10,116 nt of DNA from a virus (Duplodnaviria > Heunggongvirae > Uroviricota > Caudoviricetes): positions 1 to 10,116 of the IMG/VR virus record IMGVR_UViG_2531839265_000009; one strand, given 5' to 3'. The notes under the pieces are model-generated. The model made no database searches and was not told the origin of the DNA. It was given only the letters and a program-made list of their open reading frames with translations. Below, in pieces: positions 1-10,116 of the stretch. Position 1 is the first letter of the stretch, and each line of letters starts with the position of its first letter. A program made the position numbers and the translations under genes.

Positions 1-426
1 TTATAGATAGACCTCATCTATCAATCCCGTGCACACCTTCCCAAAAAAAAGTTTTCGAACCTGCGGCGATGTGAACAAGGGTAGGCGGGCGGTCCTGGGC
101 AGCCGGGGTTGCAAGGATTTGATCCGCCCCTCCCACCAATATTTATCGCCGTAACCGCTCCGGCTTCTTCCACTGGTACGTAATTTTTCTTTCTCCTGGT
201 ACATCTGCACGCGGCGACGGTACGACAACATCTCCAGAACTCTGGTGCGTATGTTGCGCATATCCACGCCGTTAAGCTCGATACCGTCACGGCGCATCAC
301 CTCAGCCACCACACGCGCGTAATTTCCGGCTATCACGCTGTCCGGCTGCGTGGCCTCCTGTTTGCCTGCTGCCTGGCTGGCTCCGGTAACGCGGCGAATC
401 ATTTTCAGCATTTCGGCTTCGGTCAT
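1..426 (-). CDS. hypothetical protein (141 aa from ATG 426; frame stays open to TTG at 456)
   Basis: Minus-strand ORF with TAA stop at 3..1. In-frame ATG at 426..424 lies 8 nt downstream of GGAGG (439..435). The N-terminal ~95 aa look like an ordinary helical protein; the C-terminal third is Arg/Pro-rich and overlaps a second open frame (21..290), so an undetected frameshift is possible. No family recognised. Confidence 0.45.
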   Translation of the reverse strand: MTEAEMLKMIRRVTGASQAAGKQEATQPDSVIAGNYARVVAEVMRRDGIELNGVDMRNIRTRVLEMLSYRRRVQMYQEKEKLRTSGRSRSGYGDKYWWEGRIKSLQPRLPRTARLPLFTSPQVRKLFFGKVCTGLIDEVYL

Positions 427-467
427 TGTCATGGCCTCCGTGGTGATAGGAAACAATGTCGTAATTG

Positions 468-547
468 TGGCGGGTCCTTCCTGGAAAATGAAACACCGGG
501 GGTAGCCATACGCGCAAAAACGCGCTGTTTATGAGATTTTTCGGAAG
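468..547. repeat. left arm of ~80-bp imperfect inverted repeat (partner at 1201..1280)
   Basis: Reverse complement of 468..547 aligns with 1201..1280 at roughly 80% identity. Conserved cores are AGCGCGTTTTTGCGCGTA and TACCCCCGGTGTTTCA, plus GGA(A)GGACCCG. Confidence 0.8.
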
Positions 548-708
548 GGTGGTTGTTGTTTAATTGTTTGTTATATCCATTTGATAACTAAGAGAAAACT
601 GAAAACAATACAACAACCTGAGGGCGTTTTTTTGATGTTATGGTTCCGAAAATGCCAATTAAATCAAATGGTTTAACAAAAATACGCGGTTGTTGTATTG
701 CATACTTA

Positions 709-1149
709 TTAGCTTTCCTGCTCTGTAACTACAGATTGTTGCAGATGCTCACGGCGAACGGCTACGGCATGACGCCACCCAGCCAGAAAGCCGGCCATTT
801 TATTTCGTGCCTTGCTCACGTCTTCCGGTGAGTAGCCGTAAATCTGCAGACCATTATCAAATCGCTGTTCTGTTTCTTCACTGAAAGACTCGTCGCGCTC
901 TGATGAAATCAACCTGGCAACCATAATCTTTTCCAGTGCGCTGGTTTCTCCATGGTGCTCAATAGCCTCAAGATGGCTTTTACCCATGCACCAGAATAAT
1001 GTGTGTCCGATGTGATAACCGCCGGACTTTCCGCGATCCGCATCAAGATACGGCATGCCCTGTTTGGTCCATGCGCGAATAGTGGTTCTGTTGACCTTGA
1101 AATGTTCTGCTATTTCCTGCTGACTCACAAAACAATCTTTATTATTCAT
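709..1149 (-). CDS. Nu1-like terminase small subunit-like protein (winged-HTH DNA-binding N-terminus); possible packaging-redirection factor
   Basis: 146-aa ORF. N-terminal segment QQEIAEHFKVNRTTIRAWTKQGMPYL resembles the lambda Nu1 N-terminus KKQLADIFGASIRTIQNWQEQGMPVL as I remember it. AAGGT RBS about 7 nt upstream of ATG 1149. Confidence 0.7.
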   Translation of the reverse strand: MNNKDCFVSQQEIAEHFKVNRTTIRAWTKQGMPYLDADRGKSGGYHIGHTLFWCMGKSHLEAIEHHGETSALEKIMVARLISSERDESFSEETEQRFDNGLQIYGYSPEDVSKARNKMAGFLAGWRHAVAVRREHLQQSVVTEQES

Positions 1150-1200
1150 AATGTTACCTTAATCGCATGATTAAATATTAATCAAGTGGTGGTGGTGTAC

Positions 1201-1280
1201 CCTTCCCGGAAAGTGTCATAAATAGCGCGTTTTTGCGCGTACACGTACCCCCGGTGTTTCAGATCCTGGAAAGGACCCGT
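1201..1280. repeat. right arm of ~80-bp imperfect inverted repeat (partner at 468..547)
   Basis: See partner arm. This arm lies between the terminator at 1282..1307 and the TerS-like start codon at 1149. Confidence 0.8.
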
Positions 1281-1281
1281 G

Positions 1282-1307
1282 AAAAAAAAGGCCGGATTGC
1301 TCCGGCC
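1282..1307 (-). terminator. rho-independent terminator at the end of the head-gene operon
   Basis: GGCCGGA (1290..1296) / TCCGGCC (1301..1307) stem with a 4-nt loop. On the minus strand it is followed by a run of 8 T (plus-strand A run 1282..1289). It sits directly after the stop of the ORF at 1312..1659. Confidence 0.75.
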
Positions 1308-1311
1308 TTTC

Positions 1312-1659
1312 TCAGATGTTTTTCAGTATGCGATCGATGGTATCCGTATCATAACCTTCACCTGCATAACCAGCATCTGCATAAATGGTCGCATCCTGTT
1401 TCATCATTGCGCTTAGTAGTTCGCTCGCCATATCTGCATCAAGACGCGAGACGCTAGCCATGCCACGCAATAACGGCTGATATTCAGGTGCGTCACTCAG
1501 AGCCATGATAGCGTTGACGCGATTTTTATCCTGCCTATCCAGAGCCTCAAGATTACTTCTGGCTTCATAAAGCGGCATCCCTTCATCTGCCATTGCCCTG
1601 GCTTCAACAGGAAATTTTCTGGCAAGCATTAACGACATAACGGCTTCATTCTTTGGCAT
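1312..1659 (-). CDS. hypothetical protein (115 aa), last gene of the head-gene operon
   Basis: Open frame on the minus strand. First ATG (1659..1657) follows the decoration-gene stop by 14 nt, and that intergenic spacer is a G8 homopolymer on the coding strand (C8 at 1662..1669). The upstream part of the 1312..1725 ORF overlaps the D-like gene in another frame and is not counted. No family recognised. Confidence 0.5.
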   Translation of the reverse strand: MPKNEAVMSLMLARKFPVEARAMADEGMPLYEARSNLEALDRQDKNRVNAIMALSDAPEYQPLLRGMASVSRLDADMASELLSAMMKQDATIYADAGYAGEGYDTDTIDRILKNI

Positions 1660-1673
1660 ATCCCCCCCCGTAA

Positions 1674-2009
1674 TTATCGCGCCAGTGGCTGAACTGATAT
1701 ACCTGACCCCGCAAAAGCTGCGCATTTCTTCACGTCTGTAGTGACGCTTTCAGGCCAGTTAACGGCGGCAATATTAAAAATCCCTGTCTTGTAACACTGT
1801 GCGGATTTTTGCTTTGCCGTGTCCAGGGGGTAGGAGGTCAGATAAATGGCCTTGCCTGATTCCTGACCGTCCCACGCCTTAAACTCGCCGTTCTCCGTCA
1901 TCATCAGCGGGGTAAACTCGGGAATAGCTCCGGCATCAGCGGCAAAGTGCACCAGCGTAGTGGAAACCTGCTGTGTACCGGAAAATAATTCAATATATGG
2001 AACGCCCAT
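1674..2009 (-). CDS. head decoration protein, lambda gpD-like
   Basis: 111-aa ORF. TPLMMTENGEFKAWDGQESGKAIYL...YKTGIFNIAAVNWPESVTTDVKKCAAFAGSGISV aligns along its whole length with lambda gpD as I remember it (TPLMLDTSSRKLVAWDG...[35 protein letters not shown]). GGGGGA RBS 5 nt upstream of the ATG. Confidence 0.8.
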   Translation of the reverse strand: MGVPYIELFSGTQQVSTTLVHFAADAGAIPEFTPLMMTENGEFKAWDGQESGKAIYLTSYPLDTAKQKSAQCYKTGIFNIAAVNWPESVTTDVKKCAAFAGSGISVQPLAR

Positions 2010-2021
2010 AAAAATCCCCCG

Positions 2022-3076
2022 TTAACCAATTTTCACGGTAACAAATTTGCGGATATCTGCCGGAACCGGTTGCGGTGCGCTGTGCGTCTGCACGTACTCA
2101 ATCGCCGGATCGCCTGGCTCAATCCAGTTTTTCGGGTAGTACATATTTCGTGTTGTGCCAGTTCTTACCGCGTCCTGATCCATAATTGCCCCATAGGCTA
2201 CCAGTCCTTTATTGCTGGTGTTCCCCAGAACAAGCAAATCAGGATCAAGAAAATGTTTTCTGTGCCGTCGCTGTCGGTGTATTTACCGGAATAAACAATA
2301 AGCGCCAGATCTCCCAGGTAGCCTTTAAAGCTCACCACTTCGCCCAGGTTTTTACACGCCAGCTCTGCCGCAGACTCTGACCCCCGGGACAAATCATAAA
2401 GTTCCCGGAATTTTTTAAAGCTGCGTAACAATCGCCAGGCATTCGCCCCCATAATCATGACGTTCGCGGGGCACTCAGCCTGTTCGGTATACAGTTCAAT
2501 ATCATCTGTCGGATCATGCGTCTCTTTATCCTGCTCAGACCATTTTTTCCCTGGCCCCTGCTGGATAATGCAGTTTGCTGGCATCCTCCAGTCGATTTCG
2601 TAGCGTTCTATGCCTTCGCCCTCAATGATATTTTTTCCGGTAGTGACTGCATTTACCGCCAGCCATTCAACACGGGCTTTGATGGCTTTTACCTGACGGC
2701 GAAGATTGCCGGTAATGAGGCGGAGGCGACGATAAGACGGGCTGTTGAGTGCTGCCGGATCTTCACCAGCAACACGCATAATGGTTTTTGATGGATCGAT
2801 TTCGTGTTTTGGCTTCATGTAGCCAGGCTGGATAATGCTTGTTTCGTACCCTTTATCACGCTGAACCTGACTACCCACCATCGGCGAACAAAATGCCGAC
2901 ATGGTTACTTCGTCATTTTCCAGATCATCTAACATAATCTTCTGTGTATCGAAGGTTGCGACGTTAGGGAAAAATAACGTGGTAAACAGCGGATTGAATT
3001 TAAAATCATCAACATCAGGACGATTCAGATAGGAAAAAAGCTGGTTTGTGTTCAGTGGTTGCGCCTTATCTGTCAT
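2022..3076 (-). pseudogene. major capsid protein, lambda gpE-like, interrupted by a 1-nt frameshift near 2250 (pseudogene or homopolymer sequencing error)
   Basis: ORF 2198..3076 matches the lambda gpE N-terminal and central regions (KFNPLFTTLFFP vs KFDPLFLRLFF; GYMKPKHEIDP vs GYVKPKHEVNP; THDPTDDIELY vs TYDPTDDIEAY). ORF 2022..2237 in another frame matches the gpE C-terminus (VLGNT..., YPKNWIEPGDPAIEY...). The frames switch at minus-strand gaaaacattttcttgat; one extra T would restore ...ENIFLDPDLLVLGNT.... GGGGGTGAG RBS upstream of ATG 3076. Confidence 0.8.
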
Positions 3077-3458
3077 TACTCACCCCCATGAGGCTGATTC
3101 ATACCAAGCGCAGCGCGTAAATGACTGCGTACCATCCAGCCGACTGACGGCTTCACCATGCACAACGGATCAAGGCCGATTTTTTTCCTGCCTCTGCGTT
3201 CTCCTCAAAGCGCGCATTAAGTGCGGCGATAATATCGGGGCTGATGTACACGGATACACCGCCCGGCTTCTGTGTTCCCATAAATGAGATTCCTCTTTGA
3301 CTAAAAACAAACATAACGAAAAGTCAGTCATGATTTTAATCATCGTTGCATTTTTTGCAATGATATTGACTGTTGTTGCAAATCATGAAATTATCATGCC
3401 GTGGTTTTACTCCTTGTACCACAGACTCATTCAGCATTAATCACGTTAGCGGCATGAA

Positions 3459-3492
3459 ATCCCCCGGAACCACATCCCGGGGGATTTTTTTT
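3459..3492 (+). terminator. plus-strand rho-independent terminator (no plus-strand CDS upstream; possible sRNA terminator)
   Basis: ATCCCCCGG (3459..3467) / CCGGGGGAT (3477..3485) 9-bp stem, followed by a T8 run on the plus strand. Confidence 0.6.
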
Positions 3493-3497
3493 GCGCA

Positions 3498-3524
3498 CAA
3501 AAAAGCCGGGAAAAATCCCGGCTT
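3498..3524 (-). terminator. minus-strand terminator downstream of ssb
   Basis: AAGCCGGGA (3503..3511) / TCCCGGCTT (3516..3524) 9-bp stem with a 4-nt loop. On the minus strand it is followed by TTTTGTG, a short U tract. It lies about 15 nt after the ssb stop. Confidence 0.5.
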
Positions 3525-3538
3525 CTGTCACTCGTTGC

Positions 3539-3961
3539 TTAAAACGGTATGTTATCCCCGTACGGATCATCATTACCCGCCTGTTGTTTTGCCCTGTTCA
3601 GCGCGTCAGTGGCCTGGCTCTGCTGGCCTTTTTTGCCGCCCGGGCGCGCCGTTCTGGCACTGATTACGCTGTCTGCGATAACCTGCCAGCCCTGCCGCGC
3701 TTCGCCGTTCTGGCCTGTCCACTGGCTTACCTGCATGTTACCCGCCACGCTCACCAGTTCGCCTTTGTGGTGTTTTGCCAGTGCGTCGGCCTGTCTGCCA
3801 AACGCCAGGACGGATAACCACATCGTCGCCGTTCCGTCATCTGCCTGGCTGCACGGCAGGGGAACCGCCATACTCGCCATCGCCATTTGTGTCCCTTTGC
3901 TGGTGGTCTTTAACTGCGGGTCAGTCGCCAACCGCCCGTAAGCCGCTATCTGTGCTGTCAT
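3539..3961 (-). CDS. ssb: single-stranded DNA-binding protein (SSB), plasmid/phage type
   Basis: 140-aa ORF. It has an OB-fold-like core (WLSVLAFGRQADALAKHHKGELVSVAGNMQVSQWTGQNG, compare E. coli SSB [40 protein letters not shown]), a Gly/Gln-rich linker and an acidic tail DDPYGDNIPF (compare DFDDDIPF). Its start overlaps the upstream gene stop as ATGA. Confidence 0.85.
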   Translation of the reverse strand: MTAQIAAYGRLATDPQLKTTSKGTQMAMASMAVPLPCSQADDGTATMWLSVLAFGRQADALAKHHKGELVSVAGNMQVSQWTGQNGEARQGWQVIADSVISARTARPGGKKGQQSQATDALNRAKQQAGNDDPYGDNIPF

Positions 3962-4209
3962 GCTGTCTGCTCTCCGGTTTTAACGTTGATGGTTGTCACC
4001 TGTTCCGCTTCGGCAATCTCCCGTTCTGTCAGCGTGGCAAAGTTTGCCGCCGCTGTGGTCATGAATGCGCTTATCAGTTCAGGATGCGCTTTCGCGTATC
4101 CTTCCCCGGCGTGGCGGTCTATCGTTCTGATTGCCACCTTTAAGGCGTGCTCTGTCATGTCTAATGCGCGATATTTTGGCGCTGTCTTATCTCTGCTTTT
4201 TCTGGTCAT
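3958..4209 (-). CDS. hypothetical protein (83 aa), translationally coupled to ssb
   Basis: Open frame whose stop overlaps the ssb start (ATGA). GAGGA lies immediately upstream of ATG 4209; an alternative internal start is M18. No family recognised. Confidence 0.5.
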   Translation of the reverse strand: MTRKSRDKTAPKYRALDMTEHALKVAIRTIDRHAGEGYAKAHPELISAFMTTAAANFATLTEREIAEAEQVTTINVKTGEQTA

Positions 4210-4218
4210 TCCTCACTG

Positions 4219-4412
4219 CTCCCCACTTTTACTACCCACTTTTTGAAATTACCCAACGTCTCCCCACTTCTTTTTTTGTGATTCTAACGTGATGTTTTTC
4301 AATGTATTTTTTATTCCCCACTTTTTGGGGTATATACAGGTGGGAAAGTGGGGAATCGCGTTTCAATTTTGTTAAATTCCCCACACTCCCCACTTTTACT
4401 ACCCACTTTTTA
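4219..4412. repeat. iteron-like repeat cluster with AT-rich spacer; candidate origin of replication
   Basis: 26-bp direct repeat CTCCCCACTTTTACTACCCACTTTTT at 4219..4244 and 4386..4411. Additional CCCCACTT(T) copies at 4262..4270 and 4316..4326. An inverted pair TTCCCCACTTT (4314..4324) / AAAGTGGGGAA (4345..4355). An AT-rich stretch at 4271..4315. The cluster lies immediately 3' of the helicase gene. Confidence 0.6.
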
Positions 4413-5783
4413 CAGTGGGCGCACGTCATCACCGTCAATAGCAATAACGCCATCACCTTCCAGCTTGTACAGCCAGCGCCGGAAGTGTTTCATCTCATAC
4501 CCCAGCTTTTTCATATCATCGCGCAACAACGGAATTGTGCATTTATCGCCGCGCTGTGTGCGTGAACGGATACAGCCCCATAGCGCGGCATGATTCTCCG
4601 TCTTGTTCCCGGCTTCCTCGATGCGCTCCAGTTCAACAGGTGGGCGCGGCTTATCCACAACCACCAGCGACGTGATTAACTCCTTGTCAGCGTCGGTAAA
4701 AAGCTCCACCACGCGTAAATCGTATGCAGCCTCTTTAAGTTCCTCCGCGTCCTTCATTTTGGTACAGGAGATAACCAGGGCTTCACTGTCTGCACCTTCC
4801 CGGCGAATACGGTATTCAGCGTCCAGAGATGCACGAAATGCACTGGAACCACGCGCCCCCTTTGTTTCATCCTTGCCGGAATGGTGAACCACCAGTACCG
4901 TGGCCCCTGTGCGTCGCTTCAGTTCGTCACATCCACGGATAAACGCCCCCATATCCCGCGCGTCATTTTCATCATTACCGCCAAAGCAACGCGCCAGCGT
5001 GTCCAGAATAATCATGCGTACCGGTTTACCCGTTTCCCGTTCAACCTGACGGGAAGCGATGACCATTTCATCAACATCAAGCGGGACCGCCGGAAAAATC
5101 GGGCGGTTTACCAGGTACAGATTTTTCACCCGTTCATCATTAACGATTTCCCATGCTTTGATACGACGAGGGACACCAATGCCACCTTCACCGACGACAT
5201 ACATCACCGAACCATGCGCCACCCTGCGGCCTCCCCAGTGGCGACCCGTGGCAACATGACACGCCCAGGAACACGCGAGGAATGATTTATAGGAACCGCT
5301 CGCGCCGTATGTGCTACACAATGAATTAGCCGGAATCACGCCCTTAACGACATAATCAAGCTGTGTGTCGTACCCTGCAGATCCAATACTCATTGGTAGC
5401 GTGGTTTTTCGCTGGCTGTATTGCTCGTCAGTAAGTATTTCCCCGCGCTCTGCCTGTTCGCGGATCCGTTGCAGGTAGTCGTGCCAGTTCTCCAGCTTCT
5501 GGCTGTGCATTCCCTCAGGGTAATAATTCGCATCCCGTACACCTGCCGCCGCCAGTTTTTGCCCGATGGCATTAATATTTGACGGCTTGATGTGGCCTGC
5601 CTTGTATAGCCGGACACAATAGCGACCATCATCGATGATTTTCAGGTCTGCCAGTTCGTCAAGCTGGCTGTCTCCCAGCCATACAGGCGGAACATTGTCG
5701 CCAGCAAGTCGCCCGTCCTGTTCCTGCCATTGTTTCGCGTGCGCCCAGGCATCACTACCCGCAAAAATAATGACTTCGGTCAT
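4410..5783 (-). CDS. replicative helicase, RecA-fold AAA_25 / RSF1010 RepA-like ATPase domain with an unassigned ~150-aa N-terminal domain
   Basis: 457-aa ORF. RMIILDTLARCF (Walker B-like), TVLVVHHSGKD and KGARGSSAF match the RepA/AAA_25 helicase pattern as I remember it (RLMVLDTLRRF, SIVFLHHASKG, ASRGSS). The P-loop region is GASGSYKS at 5283..5306. Confidence 0.75.
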   Translation of the reverse strand: MTEVIIFAGSDAWAHAKQWQEQDGRLAGDNVPPVWLGDSQLDELADLKIIDDGRYCVRLYKAGHIKPSNINAIGQKLAAAGVRDANYYPEGMHSQKLENWHDYLQRIREQAERGEILTDEQYSQRKTTLPMSIGSAGYDTQLDYVVKGVIPANSLCSTYGASGSYKSFLACSWACHVATGRHWGGRRVAHGSVMYVVGEGGIGVPRRIKAWEIVNDERVKNLYLVNRPIFPAVPLDVDEMVIASRQVERETGKPVRMIILDTLARCFGGNDENDARDMGAFIRGCDELKRRTGATVLVVHHSGKDETKGARGSSAFRASLDAEYRIRREGADSEALVISCTKMKDAEELKEAAYDLRVVELFTDADKELITSLVVVDKPRPPVELERIEEAGNKTENHAALWGCIRSRTQRGDKCTIPLLRDDMKKLGYEMKHFRRWLYKLEGDGVIAIDGDDVRPL

Positions 5784-5820
5784 TTTGTCGTGCGGCTGTT
5801 TTTTAAGTTCGGTGCCAGTT

Positions 5821-6120
5821 TCATTTTTTGCCCCTGAATGCGTTAATCATGTTTTTCATTTTCTGAATGTTCGCCCGTGCCCTGGCGTTACTGGTGGGCT
5901 GTTTGCGTGGTGTGGCCTGTACCAGTGAAAAATCGCGCCGGAACTGATAAACAGGCATCACGCAGTCATAGCTGTACCCATCACGGCGGTAAGTAACGCA
6001 TCGTCCCGCCACGCTTTTAATCGTTACCGTGCCGCCGTAGTTATCCCTGAAAATATCGCCGGGGCGGATTTCAGGCCGAGCGGGGCCGCTGGCAGTAAAG
6101 CCAGAATTTTTCTGTTTCAT
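5821..6120 (-). CDS. hypothetical small basic protein (99 aa) immediately upstream of the helicase gene
   Basis: Open frame with AGAGGA RBS 8 nt upstream of ATG 6120; lysine/arginine-rich C-terminus. No family recognised. Confidence 0.55.
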   Translation of the reverse strand: MKQKNSGFTASGPARPEIRPGDIFRDNYGGTVTIKSVAGRCVTYRRDGYSYDCVMPVYQFRRDFSLVQATPRKQPTSNARARANIQKMKNMINAFRGKK

Positions 6121-6190
6121 GGTTTTTATTCCTCTGCGCGGGTCTTGTTGTGTATTTCCATAACCGCGTTTAATTCATCAATAACCGGGG

Positions 6191-6334
6191 TTAACAGAGT
6201 GCTGAAAGCAGAAAATAAATCCCCCCCTGTTCGGCATGAACTTCGGTTAATTTAATTAATACCGCTTTCATTTCCAGTGCCCGATTTAATGCATTCTCAG
6301 AATGAATAAGAACATCGAAAGGGATTTCATTCAT
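6191..6334 (-). CDS. hypothetical small protein (47 aa)
   Basis: My own translation from ATG 6334..6332 gives MNEIPFDVLIHSENALNRALEMKAVLIKLTEVHAEQGGIYFLLSALC, stop TAA at 6193..6191. It is below the ORF-track length cutoff. Its start overlaps the stop of the upstream gene (ATGAATGA) and shares the start context GGTGAGCCATG with that gene. Confidence 0.4.
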   Translation of the reverse strand: MNEIPFDVLIHSENALNRALEMKAVLIKLTEVHAEQGGIYFLLSALC

Positions 6335-6791
6335 GGCTCACCACCTCCGGGAATTTTCTTCTGTAACGCGCCTCTGCAACATATTCCGCATAGTCCGACG
6401 CAATATTGAGAATATCCACACCCTCTGCCCTGTAGCCACTGGTACTGATAAGGAAAAATGCGGCTTTCATCATGTCGGCAACGCATAACAACGCATCGCC
6501 GGTGTGTTCTGGTGCGCCATCAAATTCCTGTTTCAGGGCATTAAAACGATCATCACGCATAACCCCCCCATTTTCACAATCAGCAATCAGGATGGCTTTA
6601 GCCTCATTCAGTGCCATATCAGCGGTAAGCTGTGCGTAGGCCAGCGAATGGGGGATTATTGCCCCTGTATACTCCGGCTCTCTGCTAATGTGTTTTTCCG
6701 CGGTTGCTGCCGTGCATGAAATATTAATCAGCGCGTGCATCAGCGTTCTGATAGCTTCGGCGGCTGCGTCCGGACGGGTGTTATTGCACAT
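6327..6791 (-). CDS. hypothetical protein (154 aa)
   Basis: Open frame with GGGGGTGAG RBS and start ATG 6791..6789. Overlaps the upstream gene by 11 nt and the downstream small ORF by 8 nt. No family recognised. Confidence 0.55.
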   Translation of the reverse strand: MCNNTRPDAAAEAIRTLMHALINISCTAATAEKHISREPEYTGAIIPHSLAYAQLTADMALNEAKAILIADCENGGVMRDDRFNALKQEFDGAPEHTGDALLCVADMMKAAFFLISTSGYRAEGVDILNIASDYAEYVAEARYRRKFPEVVSHE

Positions 6792-6987
6792 GGCTCACCC
6801 CCTGACGAATACGGGCGGCGAATACCATCACGCAGCCAGCCGGGGATTGCTGGCGTGCTTCCTGTTCGCTGGTGGCCTCAATGGTAATCACGCGCGGTTG
6901 TGCCGTACTCAGGGCGATAAAACGCCAGATATATTTATTCAGGTTGTGCGAGTCCCGCCCTTGCGGGTGTGTGGTATGATTTCTCAT
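6781..6987 (-). CDS. hypothetical small protein (68 aa)
   Basis: The 3' 68 codons of the long 6781..7425 frame, starting at ATG 6987..6985 with GAGG 5 nt upstream. The rest of that frame runs antisense through the RHH gene and is rejected. Stop TAA at 6783..6781 overlaps the next gene's start. Confidence 0.4.
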   Translation of the reverse strand: MRNHTTHPQGRDSHNLNKYIWRFIALSTAQPRVITIEATSEQEARQQSPAGCVMVFAARIRQGVSHVQ

Positions 6988-7068
6988 AGCTGCCTCGATA
7001 CTCTTTCTATCGTTGGTGGTTAGACGCCCTGCATGTGTGCCACCACTGCGGGGCGTTGCGTTTTTTGA

Positions 7069-7128
7069 TGTACACGTGTTAAGGTGTACACCTAACGAAC
7101 CAAAACATAACGCTATAGGTGTACACAT
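7069..7128. promoter_or_regulatory. three GTGTACAC-type palindromic operator-like sites upstream of, and overlapping the start of, the RHH gene
   Basis: TGTACAC at 7069..7075 overlapping the ACACGTGT palindrome at 7072..7079. Perfect 12-bp palindrome AGGTGTACACCT at 7082..7093. AGGTGTACACAT at 7117..7128, which overlaps the probable RBS (AGGTG) and the A of ATG 7127. Confidence 0.6.
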
Positions 7129-7321
7129 GTCAACAGTTATTAAGCGCGATAAAAAACAAAAAGGCACAGGAAAGGCCCCACCATTCCATATGCGTATAGT
7201 CCCTGAATTGAAGGAGCAGTTTGATAACGAAGCCAGTAACGATGGAGTAAGTCTTGCCAACTGGCTTAAAGAGTTAGGGCGCAAAGAACTGCTACGGCGC
7301 GGAATTGAGCCAAAGGGATAA
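7127..7321 (+). CDS. Arc/Mnt-family ribbon-helix-helix DNA-binding protein (64 aa)
   Basis: FHMRIVPELKEQFDNEASNDGVSLANWLKELGRKEL fits the RHH beta-strand plus two-helix pattern (compare Mnt FNFRMPMEVREKLKFRAEANGRSMNSELLQIV). ATG 7127 sits 5 nt after AGGTG. The longer 7013..7321 frame upstream has no RBS and runs through the operator palindromes. Confidence 0.6.
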   Translation: MSTVIKRDKKQKGTGKAPPFHMRIVPELKEQFDNEASNDGVSLANWLKELGRKELLRRGIEPKG

Positions 7322-7330
7322 CTATCACTA

Positions 7331-7861
7331 ATGTCGCAACCAGAGGAGTTGCGACTCCAAAGATTACATAGGAGATTAATGATTATGGGATTCGTCATTT
7401 TCATTGCGATCGTAATTTTATCCATTTACGTTCTTACCAAATTATTTATTTCAGAAAATTCACACGACAAAATTAGAGCCGAGGCATCCAGAAGAATTGC
7501 ACAAGAAGAGGCCGAACGGGCTAAGTTGTATGAAGAGAGAAAGGAATCATCTGATAATCCTGTTAATAAACAAAAACGAATAACAACACACGAAGATCAT
7601 TTTTATATGGATATTCATGGCGGTCACAAATATATATGTGTTGATGCTAAGTTAGTTTTTGAATATGCAAATTTAAAACACAACTATTTTCTTCACGCAT
7701 CTCACTATTTCCCTGAGTTAGAGTATGTTTATGGAAAAAACGAACATGGGAAAATAGTTAGAGTAGATTTGTACGATAAAAAAATTCAAGCTATTAACCC
7801 CGATACTGGCGAAAAAATACCAGGTGTGAGACGTTACCTACGACAGCACAAGATAAAATAG
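7331..7861 (+). CDS. single-pass membrane protein with ~130-aa His/Tyr-rich C-terminal domain, unknown function (AT-rich cargo gene)
   Basis: Open frame with one hydrophobic helix (MIMGFVIFIAIVILSIYVLTKLF) preceded by a basic segment (RLQRLHRRL), then a charged linker and a C-terminal domain. Strong AGGAG (7370..7374) favours ATG 7379 or 7385 as the real start; 7331 is the longest frame. Markedly AT-richer than its surroundings, by eye. Confidence 0.6.
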   Translation: MSQPEELRLQRLHRRLMIMGFVIFIAIVILSIYVLTKLFISENSHDKIRAEASRRIAQEEAERAKLYEERKESSDNPVNKQKRITTHEDHFYMDIHGGHKYICVDAKLVFEYANLKHNYFLHASHYFPELEYVYGKNEHGKIVRVDLYDKKIQAINPDTGEKIPGVRRYLRQHKIK

Positions 7862-7963
7862 CCCACCGGAATTTTTTTCCGGTTACGCTTTGCCCACCAG
7901 CCGCAAATGTGGCATTGTTGGCAATGCTCATGCGTTGGGGATAACGTGTAGCTTGTGTCGAAT

Positions 7964-7991
7964 GGCCACCGTAGCAGGTGGCCTTTGTTTT
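7964..7991 (+). terminator. rho-independent terminator for the plus-strand cassette
   Basis: GGCCACC (7964..7970) / GGTGGCC (7977..7983) 7-bp stem with a 6-nt loop, followed by TTTGTTTT. Confidence 0.65.
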
Positions 7992-8142
7992 GCCTGTTAT
8001 CCGGCAATTGTGGCGCTTCGTCACACGGTTGATATAATTCCCCTGCACTGATCCATTTTTTTCGCAGCAGGTTAATTGTTCACAAGGGCGCTCCGGCAAC
8101 GGGGTGCTTTTTGTTATGTTCATTGCGTTACACCTAACACCA

Positions 8143-8349
8143 TTACGCAGCCGTTCCGCGCGCTTCTTCCTCGCGTTCTTTCAGCCAGGCCAGCACCTCA
8201 TCTTCATACCAGCCAACACGGCGCAGACCGATTTTGAAGCCTTTCGGGAATTTTCCGGCGCTGATCATGTCCTGTAGCGAACTGTCTGCCTTGATGCGCA
8301 GAATATTTTTTACTTCCTGACGGGTAAGAATTTTTCTGATTACTTCCAT
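8143..8349 (-). CDS. alpA: AlpA-family phage transcriptional regulator (MerR-like HTH; excisionase/activator-like)
   Basis: 68-aa ORF. ILTRQEVKNILRIKADSSLQDMISAGKFPKGFKIGLRRVGWYEDEVLAWL matches the AlpA pattern (L..V....G.S..T.Y.....G.FP.....G.R.VGW...EV..WL). GAGGT RBS 9 nt upstream of ATG 8349. Confidence 0.85.
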   Translation of the reverse strand: MEVIRKILTRQEVKNILRIKADSSLQDMISAGKFPKGFKIGLRRVGWYEDEVLAWLKEREEEARGTAA

Positions 8350-8414
8350 CGTGTTTTACCTCGTTAATCCGGCGTATTCCGGTGATAAATACGGTAAAAC
8401 AGGGCAGGGCGGGA

Positions 8415-8454
8415 AAAACAGTACTCACCGTTTTAAAACGGTACTCACTGTTTT
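8415..8454. promoter_or_regulatory. two tandem 20-bp imperfectly palindromic repeats upstream of alpA (candidate operator)
   Basis: AAAACAGTACTCACCGTTTT at 8415..8434 and AAAACGGTACTCACTGTTTT at 8435..8454, differing at 2 positions. Each has inverted ends AAAAC.G / C.GTTTT around TACTCAC. Confidence 0.55.
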
Positions 8455-8482
8455 TATCTCATTGATTACGCTTTCTTTTTGC

Positions 8483-8513
8483 AAAAAAAATAGCGACCGC
8501 AAGGGGCCGCTAT
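8483..8513 (-). terminator. rho-independent terminator after the int / small-ORF transcription unit
   Basis: ATAGCGACC (8490..8498) / GGCCGCTAT (8505..8513) stem with one mismatch. On the minus strand it is followed by a T run (plus-strand A run 8483..8489). Confidence 0.6.
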
Positions 8514-8518
8514 TGTGA

Positions 8519-8761
8519 TTACCGCTTCCACTTCTTAGGTCGTCCACCACATTTAAGGCTGGTGGGTCTCAGCACCTTGTCGATGCTTTCAGCCAGATTT
8601 TTCGATGCGCCACGCGAGCGTAAAAAACTGACTACCTCGTGTTTTGTGGGGGCTGTTGATTTGTCTTCCGGATCGTATGTTGACCAGAATTCATGATTTG
8701 CCATTAACGCCAGTTGCAGTCCTTCACCGCAGACATTGGATGATTTTTCGTGCCAGACCAT
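8519..8761 (-). CDS. hypothetical protein (80 aa) between int and alpA
   Basis: Open frame only. Weak RBS. Basic C-terminus (GRPKKWKR). No family recognised; the exact start is uncertain. Confidence 0.4.
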   Translation of the reverse strand: MVWHEKSSNVCGEGLQLALMANHEFWSTYDPEDKSTAPTKHEVVSFLRSRGASKNLAESIDKVLRPTSLKCGGRPKKWKR

Positions 8762-8874
8762 TTCAATAAATCTCGATTTCTCATGAGTCGGGTTTTTCCT
8801 TGTCTGTTGAGGAGATAGAGGATTATACGATGGTTTGGCATGGTTTGCACTGGTTATACTGTTTTTTTGTACAG

Positions 8875-10116
8875 TTACACGGCACGGATACCCCTTTTAC
8901 CACTGGCTATGGTCACTCCGGTAGCTGCGGCCTCTACAAATTCCCCCCACCAGCGCATAAGCACCACGCGCTTTTCCAGGTAGTTACTTCGGTTATATGC
9001 TCGCCTTACCTCGTTCGTGTCCACGTGTGCGAGTGCGGCCTCGATTACGTCCGGCTCGAATCCTTCCTCGTTCGCTGCTGTACTGAATATGGCGCGTAAT
9101 CCGTGAGACACCAGCACACCAGCGTATCCCATCCGGCGCAATGCAGCGTTAGCGGTCTGGCTGCTCATTGGCAGCATTGGATTTTTAAGGCTGGGAAAAA
9201 CATGTTCCCTGTGTGCGCTGATTGGCTTCATTGTTTCCAGTACAGCCATCGCCTGACCGCAAAGAGGGATCACATGGTCACGGCGCATCTTCATGCGTCC
9301 GGCTGGAATCGTCCATGTTTCGGCATCGAGATCTATTTCTTCCCAGCGTGCGGCGGCTGCTTCGGCTGGGCGTGCTACGGTCAGCAGTTGCCACTCAATC
9401 AGCAATCTGGTTTGCCGTTCTATGCTGGCGACCGATAAATCGTGCATTAGCTGCGGTAGCTGTTCCGGTCGGATGGTTGGCATATGCTTTTTAGTGGGAG
9501 AAGGGAATGCCTTGCGGACGTTCGCTGCGGTGTTGATGTCAATCAGCCCACTGTTGGCAGCAAAATCCATCACTTCATTGATGCGTTGTAAAACGCGTTT
9601 CAGAGTTTCCAGGTTGCCACGCGCTTTAATGGGGGTGAGTATCTCGACAAAGCGGCGAGCGGTGAGGGTATCTATTGGCGTTTTTCCGATGTACGGGAAT
9701 ACGTATTTTTCCATGGATCGCCAGATATCCTTAATCGTGTTGTAAGCCAGATTCTGGCCTTTTTTCATCTCGTACCAGTCCGAGGCAACTTTTTCGAACG
9801 TGTTGCCCTTTTTCCTGCTCTCTGCTTCACGTTTCCGGCGTTCGTAGTCCTGTGGGTCAGTTCCCTTTGCTATGAGTGACCTGTATTCATTCCGTCGCTC
9901 TCTGGCATCAGACAGGGAAACATCATTTAGCGATCCAAGGCTGATAATAGTCCGTTTTTTATCTGCCGGGCGGTAGTACGTAAAACGCCAGATTTTTGAT
10001 CCGGAGGGCTTCACCAGAAGAAATAATCCTCCGCCATCCTGCAGGGTATATTCCTTTTCCCCTGGTCGTGCGTTTTTGATCTCCGTAATAGTTAGTGGGG
10101 GGGTTTTTCGTGCCAT
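8875..10116 (-). CDS. int: tyrosine site-specific integrase, P4-family (prophage CP4-like)
   Basis: 413-aa ORF. N-terminus YTLQDGGGLFLLVKPSGSKIWRFTYY is the typical P4-type integrase arm domain. C-terminal catalytic region contains the HGLR box (VSHGLRAIFSTAA) and a downstream Tyr (RRAYNRSNYLEKR). The ATG is the last three bases of the window, so its RBS and the attachment site lie outside. Confidence 0.95.
   Translation of the reverse strand: MARKTPPLTITEIKNARPGEKEYTLQDGGGLFLLVKPSGSKIWRFTYYRPADKKRTIISLGSLNDVSLSDARERRNEYRSLIAKGTDPQDYERRKREAESRKKGNTFEKVASDWYEMKKGQNLAYNTIKDIWRSMEKYVFPYIGKTPIDTLTARRFVEILTPIKARGNLETLKRVLQRINEVMDFAANSGLIDINTAANVRKAFPSPTKKHMPTIRPEQLPQLMHDLSVASIERQTRLLIEWQLLTVARPAEAAAARWEEIDLDAETWTIPAGRMKMRRDHVIPLCGQAMAVLETMKPISAHREHVFPSLKNPMLPMSSQTANAALRRMGYAGVLVSHGLRAIFSTAANEEGFEPDVIEAALAHVDTNEVRRAYNRSNYLEKRVVLMRWWGEFVEAAATGVTIASGKRGIRAV

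Follow-up and report, generated by a model that had tools for sequence, protein, structure and literature searches.

A candidate small RNA gene with a lambda OOP-like layout at the replication-capsid boundary of EcCICFT073-type phage-inducible chromosomal islands

Closest described systems

In phage lambda, the OOP RNA is a 77-nt transcript that runs from its own promoter to its own intrinsic terminator, against the rightward operon and beside the replication genes. It overlaps the 3' end of cII and acts on this gene as a cis-antisense RNA. The lambda promoters PRM and PR are divergent, lie back to back and share operators. Virulence and defence genes are spread by EcCICFT073-type phage-inducible chromosomal islands (PICIs), which are also being engineered into delivery vehicles. 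To our knowledge, the regulation of these islands is known only at the level of AlpA; the control of their capsid/packaging module is undescribed, and the capsid genes have no assigned role.

Here, we analysed the window, a stretch of 10,116 nt (positions 1 to 10,116 of IMG/VR record IMGVR_UViG_2531839265_000009), and describe in it a candidate small RNA. Similar to OOP, this candidate is a short RNA with its own putative promoter and terminator, lies opposite a one-directional gene block and sits at the edge of the replication module. However, it ends 46 nt before the ssb stop codon, overlaps no coding sequence and has no sequence similarity to OOP. Because the candidate ends at 3492, the ssb stop codon lies at 3539 and the capsid leader starts at ~3326, no gene is overlapped and only read-through transcripts would be complementary to the RNA. 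A cis-antisense RNA of the OOP type was rejected on the same ground, the absence of an overlapping gene on the other strand. The locus also resembles PRM/PR in its divergent promoter-like sites, with starts ~75 bp apart and with repeats and palindromes between and over them, whereas one arm here would give only a terminated RNA of ~90 nt and not a repressor gene.

Other small RNAs of mobile elements share some of these properties. P4 CI, P1-P7 C4 and isrK are small regulatory RNAs of satellites or temperate phages with Icd-like genes, and the island described here also has Icd-like genes; the candidate differs from these RNAs in having neither a covariance-model match nor a complementary leader target. 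P4 CI is processed from a same-strand leader, whereas the candidate has its own promoter-like site on the strand opposite to the operon. In pathogenic E. coli, the prophage-encoded and Hfq-dependent Esr41, AgvB/AsxR and PasA-D are short intergenic RNAs of acquired elements that end in a hairpin and a long U-tail, and PasB lies antisense between co-directional genes, as does the candidate. However, they belong to other loci and have no sequence or Rfam similarity to it: Esr41 is located in SpLE1/OI-43, and PasB lies between tail genes of a lambdoid prophage, so both were rejected as counterparts.

The O157 island that carries a related locus is, we assume, the one named Sp7 in Sakai. The Hfq-crosslinking catalogue of O157 Sakai holds no small RNA labelled Sp7. 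None of the EcOnc RNAs is listed under this label either, and EcOnc33 was set aside as it lies in Sp6 with a different probe. Literature searches found no transcript or small RNA for EcCICFT073 or OI-51, and the region had no match in the phage collection. The most fitting description of the locus is a candidate new family of small RNA genes in EcCICFT073-type PICIs, with a lambda OOP-like layout and no described relative.

The island and its control region

Chromosomal islands matching the window are present in 1,973 complete E. coli genomes. Annotated relatives encode an integrase adjoining tRNA-Pro, an AlpA-like HTH protein, Icd-like genes, DUF4222, a RepA-family helicase/primase and SSB, as well as major capsid, head decoration and small HTH/TerS-like proteins. 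In the window, profile searches identified SSB, a helicase (AAA_25), two lambda-like head proteins (a D-like decoration protein and an E-like major head protein, phrog_29) and an HTH protein resembling TerS. The earlier note on this DNA had read the element in the light of P4 and its CI immunity RNA. This framing was abandoned: the gene set (capsid, decoration, Rpp/TerS-like, RepA-type helicase, SSB and Icd-like genes) and the relatives identify the window as an EcCICFT073-type PICI, not P4, and the candidate RNA has no C4 match and its own promoter-like site on the opposite strand. Among the relatives, L002 comes from strain CFT073 and is EcCICFT073, the model PICI of Gram-negative bacteria, and L004 is the O157:H7 island between roxA and phoQ, that is, OI-51.

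All genes flanking positions 3282-3538 are on the minus strand. This region separates the ssb stop codon (3539) from the start of the 68-aa gene (ATG 3281-3279) at the head of the capsid operon, and is the control region at the boundary between the replication and capsid modules. Its features are listed in Table 1.

Compared with the near-identical island L003, one T is missing from the window in each of two homopolymer runs (~2256 and 3180-3186). As a result, the 68-aa gene is frameshifted, and so is the major capsid gene, which reads as ORFs 2022-2237 and 2198-3076 and not as a single 351-aa gene; the losses are either sequencing errors or real inactivating mutations.

Table 1. Features of the control region in the window, with the homologous stretches in two E. 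coli genomes
Feature	Coordinates	Strand	Basis
Capsid operon gene 1, 68-aa protein, phrog_3255, frameshifted in the window	3075..3281	minus	
Predicted 5' leader of the capsid operon; RBS GAGGAA at 3295-3290	3282..3326	minus	sequence and alignment of translation start regions
Palindrome ATGATTTTAATCAT over the capsid promoter -10, operator-like	3330-3343	none	
Capsid operon promoter-like site; TTGCAA 3360-3355, 16-nt spacer, TAAAAT 3338-3333	3333..3360	minus	consensus scan
TTGCA/TTGCAA/TTGCAA repeats, inside an imperfect 22-nt inverted repeat (3339-3360 / 3376-3397)	3346-3350, 3355-3360, 3376-3381		
Small RNA promoter-like site; TTGACT 3366-3371, 17-nt spacer, AATTAT 3389-3394	3366..3394	plus	consensus scan, 9/12
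Candidate small RNA, ~92 nt	~3401..3492	plus	promoter, fold z, layout in 157/157 related loci
5' stem-loop; GTGGT 3401-3405 / ACCAC 3418-3422, pyrimidine-rich loop UUUACUCCUUGU	3401..3422	plus	fold
Intrinsic terminator; arms 3460-3467 / 3477-3484, 9-nt loop AACCACAUC, T8 3485-3492	3457..3492	plus	
Intrinsic terminator of the replication/ssb operon; GCCGGGA/TCCCGGC, stems 3505-3511 / 3516-3522	3499..3524	minus	dG -13.7 kcal/mol
ssb, last gene of the replication module	3539..3961	minus	Pfam SSB, E = 5.9e-16; SSB annotation in near-identical islands
Homologous stretch, CFT073	~NC_004431.1 1385259-1385337	minus	
Homologous stretch, O157 TW14359	~NC_013008.1 1542880-1542958	minus	

Every sequence feature that the earlier note had listed was found in its place. 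The TTGACT box and the possible -10 element AATTAT form a promoter-like site that was recovered by the consensus scan, and the TG at 3386-3387 makes this an extended -10. Four promoter-like sites were called in the region, compared with 1.3 ± 1.1 in shuffled sequences. The 5' end of the candidate RNA is a prediction based on the -10 element, with an uncertainty of ~8 nt. Folding reproduced the GTGGT/ACCAC hairpin, and the strong plus-strand terminator claimed for 3459..3492 proved to be a hairpin of -15.9 kcal/mol followed by T8. Its stem can be extended to 3457-3467 / 3477-3487, 11 nt with 100% complementarity. A simple terminator scan missed it because the loop limit of the scan was 8 nt and the loop here has 9 nt. 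The terminator is expected to act mainly in the plus direction, since the minus-strand side has only TTTCAT after the hairpin. The two terminators indeed stand back to back: the A6 at 3499-3504, which is the U-run of the minus-strand terminator, lies 6 nt from the plus-strand T-run. A 96-nt stretch folds at -28.1 kcal/mol (z = -3.2), and 0 of 200 shuffles folded as well. It was also borne out that no credible plus-strand coding sequence ends in the region; the plus-strand ORFs 3297-3440 and 3373-3663 cross terminators or run antisense to ssb.

Two smaller repeats lie in the same stretch. A direct repeat, CATGAAAT, occurs at 3384-3391 and 3453-3460, and an 8-nt inverted repeat, TCATGCCG/CGGCATGA, at 3394-3401 and 3450-3457. 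If transcription started at ~3394 instead of 3401, this inverted repeat would close the RNA body as a long-range stem.

The promoter-like site of the capsid operon was absent from the earlier note. Its predicted start is at ~3326, ~75 bp from that of the small RNA. This minus-strand site opposes the plus-strand site, with the -35 hexamers 5 bp apart, and thus the two lie back to back. Its homologues, read from the sequence, are TTGCTC-16-TATAAT in CFT073 and TTGCAT-16-TATAAT in O157. The palindromes that had been noticed in the region were confirmed, with one lying over the capsid -10; its homologues are ATGATTATAATCAT in CFT073 and CTGATTATAATCAG in O157, in which both ends are altered jointly so that the symmetry is preserved. 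ATGA...TCAT palindromes and TTGCA(A) repeats are common to both promoter-like sites. In distant relatives, three TGCAAY repeats at 10-bp spacing occupy the same place and are followed by TGTATAAAG. The repeated ATCATG motifs are present, at 3329, 3382 and 3393, but are weak evidence alone, since the window has 13 copies against 6.6 expected.

In islands of the CFT073/O157 type, the capsid leader forms a long hairpin (14 pairs by scan) with a T-run behind it, which overlaps the -10 palindrome (minus strand, L002 7054-7023 and the corresponding place in L004); the window-type leader has no such hairpin. This leader hairpin resembles a terminator close to the promoter, for which antitermination would be required.

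Layout and RNA features in related islands

When 3282-3538 was searched by BLAST, the full region was found in 22 genomes only, and conservation was limited to the left part, 3286-3401, which holds the promoter-like sites, palindromes and repeats. This part showed ~78% identity in ~600 genomes, including CFT073 and O157, and is present in 641 of 5,426 complete E. coli genomes, O157:H7 among them; EcCICFT073-type PICIs are thus widespread. The same layout recurs in the islands of CFT073 and O157, but with another RNA body and another plus-strand hairpin, GCCCGATAAG...CTTATCGGGC; a T7 run comes after this hairpin, and a minus-strand terminator after the T7 run.

Related loci were collected via the capsid protein (53-100% identity); 2 loci came from species genomes and 80 each from IMG/VR and metagenomes. 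The spacer upstream of the capsid operon was scanned with an RNAfold-based terminator finder, for which 157 loci had enough sequence. On the strand opposite to the genes, a hairpin with a T-run was found in all 157, starting 43-102 nt past the conserved block. In dinucleotide-shuffled regions, a terminator was called in ~12% of cases per region. The predicted RNAs formed 16 clusters below ~85% identity, and their hairpins represent at least 9 sequences unrelated to one another. In most loci of the Kluyvera/Kosakonia type, the opposite-strand terminator was the sole one called in the spacer and no T-run was present on the gene strand. As this terminator faces against the genes, it cannot terminate an upstream gene.

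In 6 of the 6 E. coli-type clusters and in 7 of the 10 distant clusters, a TG-extended -10 follows the last TGCAA repeat at a constant position. In all E. coli-type clusters, a TG-n-AAnnAT element occupies the same place, with weak -10 hexamers (AATTAT, AATGAT and AATGTT). In a strict consensus scan, the plus-strand promoter was not called in CFT073 and no promoter was called in Kluyvera. The spacing between -10 and terminator gives predicted RNAs of about 73-140 nt. A U7-U8 tail follows the terminator hairpin (T8 in the window, T7 in CFT073 and O157). The earlier note had proposed a plus-strand transcript of ~90 nt and, with reference to P4, a regulatory role for it. While the link to P4 fell away, the idea of a transcript became considerably stronger, because the layout is kept in 157 of 157 loci although the RNA body and the terminator hairpin are often replaced.

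The gene content upstream of this stretch also varies. A PerC-family regulator lies between ssb and the small RNA region in the O157 and CFT073 islands (L004 8247-8870; L002 7250-7498), and the O157 island has two further small genes there; the window has neither the PerC gene nor these two. Thus, it may be the upstream module, not the capsid module, with which the variable RNA body moves.

At the RNA level, the fold z-scores of the predicted RNAs ranged from -0.8 to -5.5, to which the terminator contributes much. The 16 representative RNAs contain 23 CCTC/CTCC motifs versus 2 GAGG/GGAG, and the CCUC/CUCC motif is predicted to be unpaired in 9 of the 16, compared with 3.5 expected from shuffles. 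In the window, the CU-rich motif sits in the loop of the 5' hairpin. A UUCCUCC loop occurs on differing stems in several distant clusters (TGTTATTT/AAATAACA, CGTTGTT/AACAACG, TTGTCGTTT/AGATGACAA and CTGTTACT/GGTAACAG), and in relatives the 5' hairpin itself has altered stems: in L008 the arms are GTGGTT/AACCAC, and in L097 they are GCGGT/ATCGT, which form two G.U pairs. Such G.U pairs, which are valid on the plus strand only, were present in 8 of the 12 hairpins with CU-rich loops that were examined. In RNAs of the CFT073/O157 type, ACCUCAU is found both within a single-stranded, A-rich stretch and in the loop of the terminator.

Column-wise covariation of the 5' hairpin was not demonstrable across clusters with MAFFT and RNAalifold, because the stems are in different registers and cross-cluster alignments are unreliable. 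RNAalifold recovered only the terminator, in which 3 of 10 pairs were changed on both sides. Since the RNA body is not conserved between clusters, no common seed beyond the CCUC-like motifs was found. Nevertheless, the recurring CU-rich loops argue for some selection at the RNA level.

Proposed mode of action and competing readings

Judged from the sequence, the minus-strand promoter would drive the capsid operon, and the plus-strand promoter would drive an RNA of ~92 nt (~3401-3492) that ends at its own intrinsic terminator, abutting the one that closes the ssb operon. This RNA would consist of a 5' hairpin with a pyrimidine-rich, anti-Shine-Dalgarno-like loop, an unstructured stretch, and the terminator with a U8 tail. 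Base pairing is the most likely mode of action. In trans, the loop may pair with a purine-rich ribosome-binding region of the island, of a helper phage or of the host. In cis, the RNA may pair with transcripts that extend past the replication module in the direction of the capsid operon, and its transcription would also oppose them. We infer, with a probability of roughly 0.5, a small RNA with transcription and termination of its own that works through base pairing: in cis with read-through transcripts and, probably, in trans with a ribosome-binding region. When function is left aside, a new PICI small RNA gene is probable.

If real, an RNA gene that is conserved on the opposite strand and coupled with the capsid promoter would offer a handle on the control of the capsid module and on the role of the capsid genes. 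Moreover, pathogen genomes that have been studied heavily would gain a small RNA family so far missing from their annotation.

The search for complementary target sites that had been suggested for the island and for helper phages was carried out in the island and in lambda start regions, and nothing rose above chance. Ungapped complementarity of at least 8-9 nt in the window, CFT073 and O157 islands was at chance level (9-mers are expected ~4 times), and no above-chance complementary site was found upstream of icd or elsewhere in the island. When duplexes were folded against the start regions of operon gene 1 and the capsid gene, the mean z was 0.04 and -0.5, respectively, relative to shuffled RNAs. 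Among 35 lambda start regions, none stood out; the most specific-looking pairing was that of the CFT073-type RNA with the cro ribosome-binding site (z ~-1.8). An Hfq-dependent, trans-acting small RNA would be expected to have a conserved seed and a complementary target; here, only CCUC-like motifs recur and the target searches were at chance.

In the helicase gene, positions 4679-4687 (ACAAGGAGT, 9 nt) are an exact complement of the small RNA loop, a match that by its length is within chance. Within 4669-4687, ACAAGGAGT is directly followed by TAATCACGT, which is identical to 3438-3446 of the RNA.

A more ambitious version, in which the RNA is a satellite riboregulator and one arm of a two-way switch, is rather improbable. 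In the quiescent island, the small RNA promoter would be on and read-through blocked, while the anti-Shine-Dalgarno loop would repress a key mRNA of the island or the helper phage; upon induction, a shared regulator would turn on the capsid promoter instead. If true, Gram-negative PICIs would gain their first described RNA-level control or helper-interference factor, with the RNA present in the model island EcCICFT073 and in the O157 island OI-51.

The RNA may also be a by-product. The plus-strand promoter would then fire and yield an RNA with no sequence-specific role; the divergent promoter would compete with or balance the capsid promoter, while convergent transcription and the terminator would bar read-through into the capsid operon and stop antisense transcription into ssb. 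This insulating role is unlikely, though a serious contender. From cluster to cluster the RNA body changes, and only the promoter position, the length range and the terminator persist; this turnover fits a sequence-independent role, and the searches found no target. In addition, CFT073/O157-type islands have two tandem minus-strand-capable hairpins, which suggests that strong insulation matters. However, the recurrence of CCUC-type motifs and their placement in loops are not expected of such an RNA, and the UUCCUCC loop kept over changing stems in several distant clusters suggests selection on the RNA itself. A still simpler account holds that there is no discrete transcript, only a bidirectional terminator set at the module boundary, and that the plus-strand hexamers are operator or activator sites of the capsid promoter. 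Block 3286-3401, with the capsid promoter, palindromes and TGCAA repeats, is enough alone to explain the conservation, the plus-strand -10 hexamers are weak and no transcript has been reported. We nevertheless find this account doubtful: the sole called terminator of many distant loci faces against the genes, has no gene-strand T-run beside it and serves no annotated gene, the window already has a canonical minus-strand terminator ahead of the plus-strand one, and the distance from -10 to terminator is constrained.

The remaining alternatives concern other kinds of element. An immunity RNA of the P4 CI/P1 C4 type, of which the earlier note had invoked P4 CI, would suit a satellite with Icd-like genes, as in the c4-icd-ant region of P1. 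The covariance-model search proposed alongside it found no Rfam family at gathering thresholds in the whole window or in 20 related loci. At E <= 10, no C4 match was listed for 3200-3650. The searches gave only terminator-shaped chance matches, ncr1175 (34 bits versus a threshold of 60) and isrK (11.7 versus 50), the latter on the minus strand over the other terminator. With its own promoter-like site opposite the operon and no complementary site upstream of icd, the candidate has next to no chance of being such an RNA. Furthermore, CI/seqA homologues have been reported in some PICIs, but from Bro genes, a location other than that of the candidate (PMC10111431). A small protein or leader peptide encoded at the small RNA stretch is very improbable, and coding on either strand there is unlikely. 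Minus-strand ORFs of 16 codons with the same stop codon were read by eye in CFT073 and O157; however, close relatives differ by 1-3 nt in the length of the A-run within this ORF, so that the frame is broken, no Shine-Dalgarno sequence lies upstream, the ORF is absent in the window, and the plus-strand ORFs cross both terminators. The region is AT-rich (29-35% GC at 3300-3450) and has repeats, as a replication origin or packaging (cos) site might, yet either role is hardly conceivable. Origin-type iterons and an AT-rich core lie instead at 4208-4412 beside the helicase gene, so 3282-3538 was rejected as the PICI origin. The lambda cosN sequence, GGGCGGCGACCT, had no match with <=2 mismatches anywhere in the window; with 3 mismatches there were 6 matches versus 8 expected, none of them in 3282-3538. 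In EcCICFT073 (L002), cosN lies elsewhere, in two exact copies at 4149 and 4888.

In the likely replication origin of the window, at 4208-4412 and directly 3' of the helicase gene, the AT-rich core is flanked by (A/T)TCCCCAC(TTTT) repeats and by a direct repeat of 26 nt (4219-4244 and 4386-4411). The EcCICFT073 origin was mapped experimentally to the position directly 3' of the helicase gene (PMC6092414). Since the window has no cosN and EcCICFT073 has two exact copies, the window island may use a different helper or packaging site; it retains the Rpp/TerS-like HTH gene at 709-1149. Finally, the otherwise one-directional early operon of the window is interrupted at 7127-7861 by two plus-strand genes, a small Arc-like gene (homology to L003 8850-9041) and ORF 7331-7861 (176 aa, no family match), flanked by an Icd-like pseudogene and an intact Icd-like gene.
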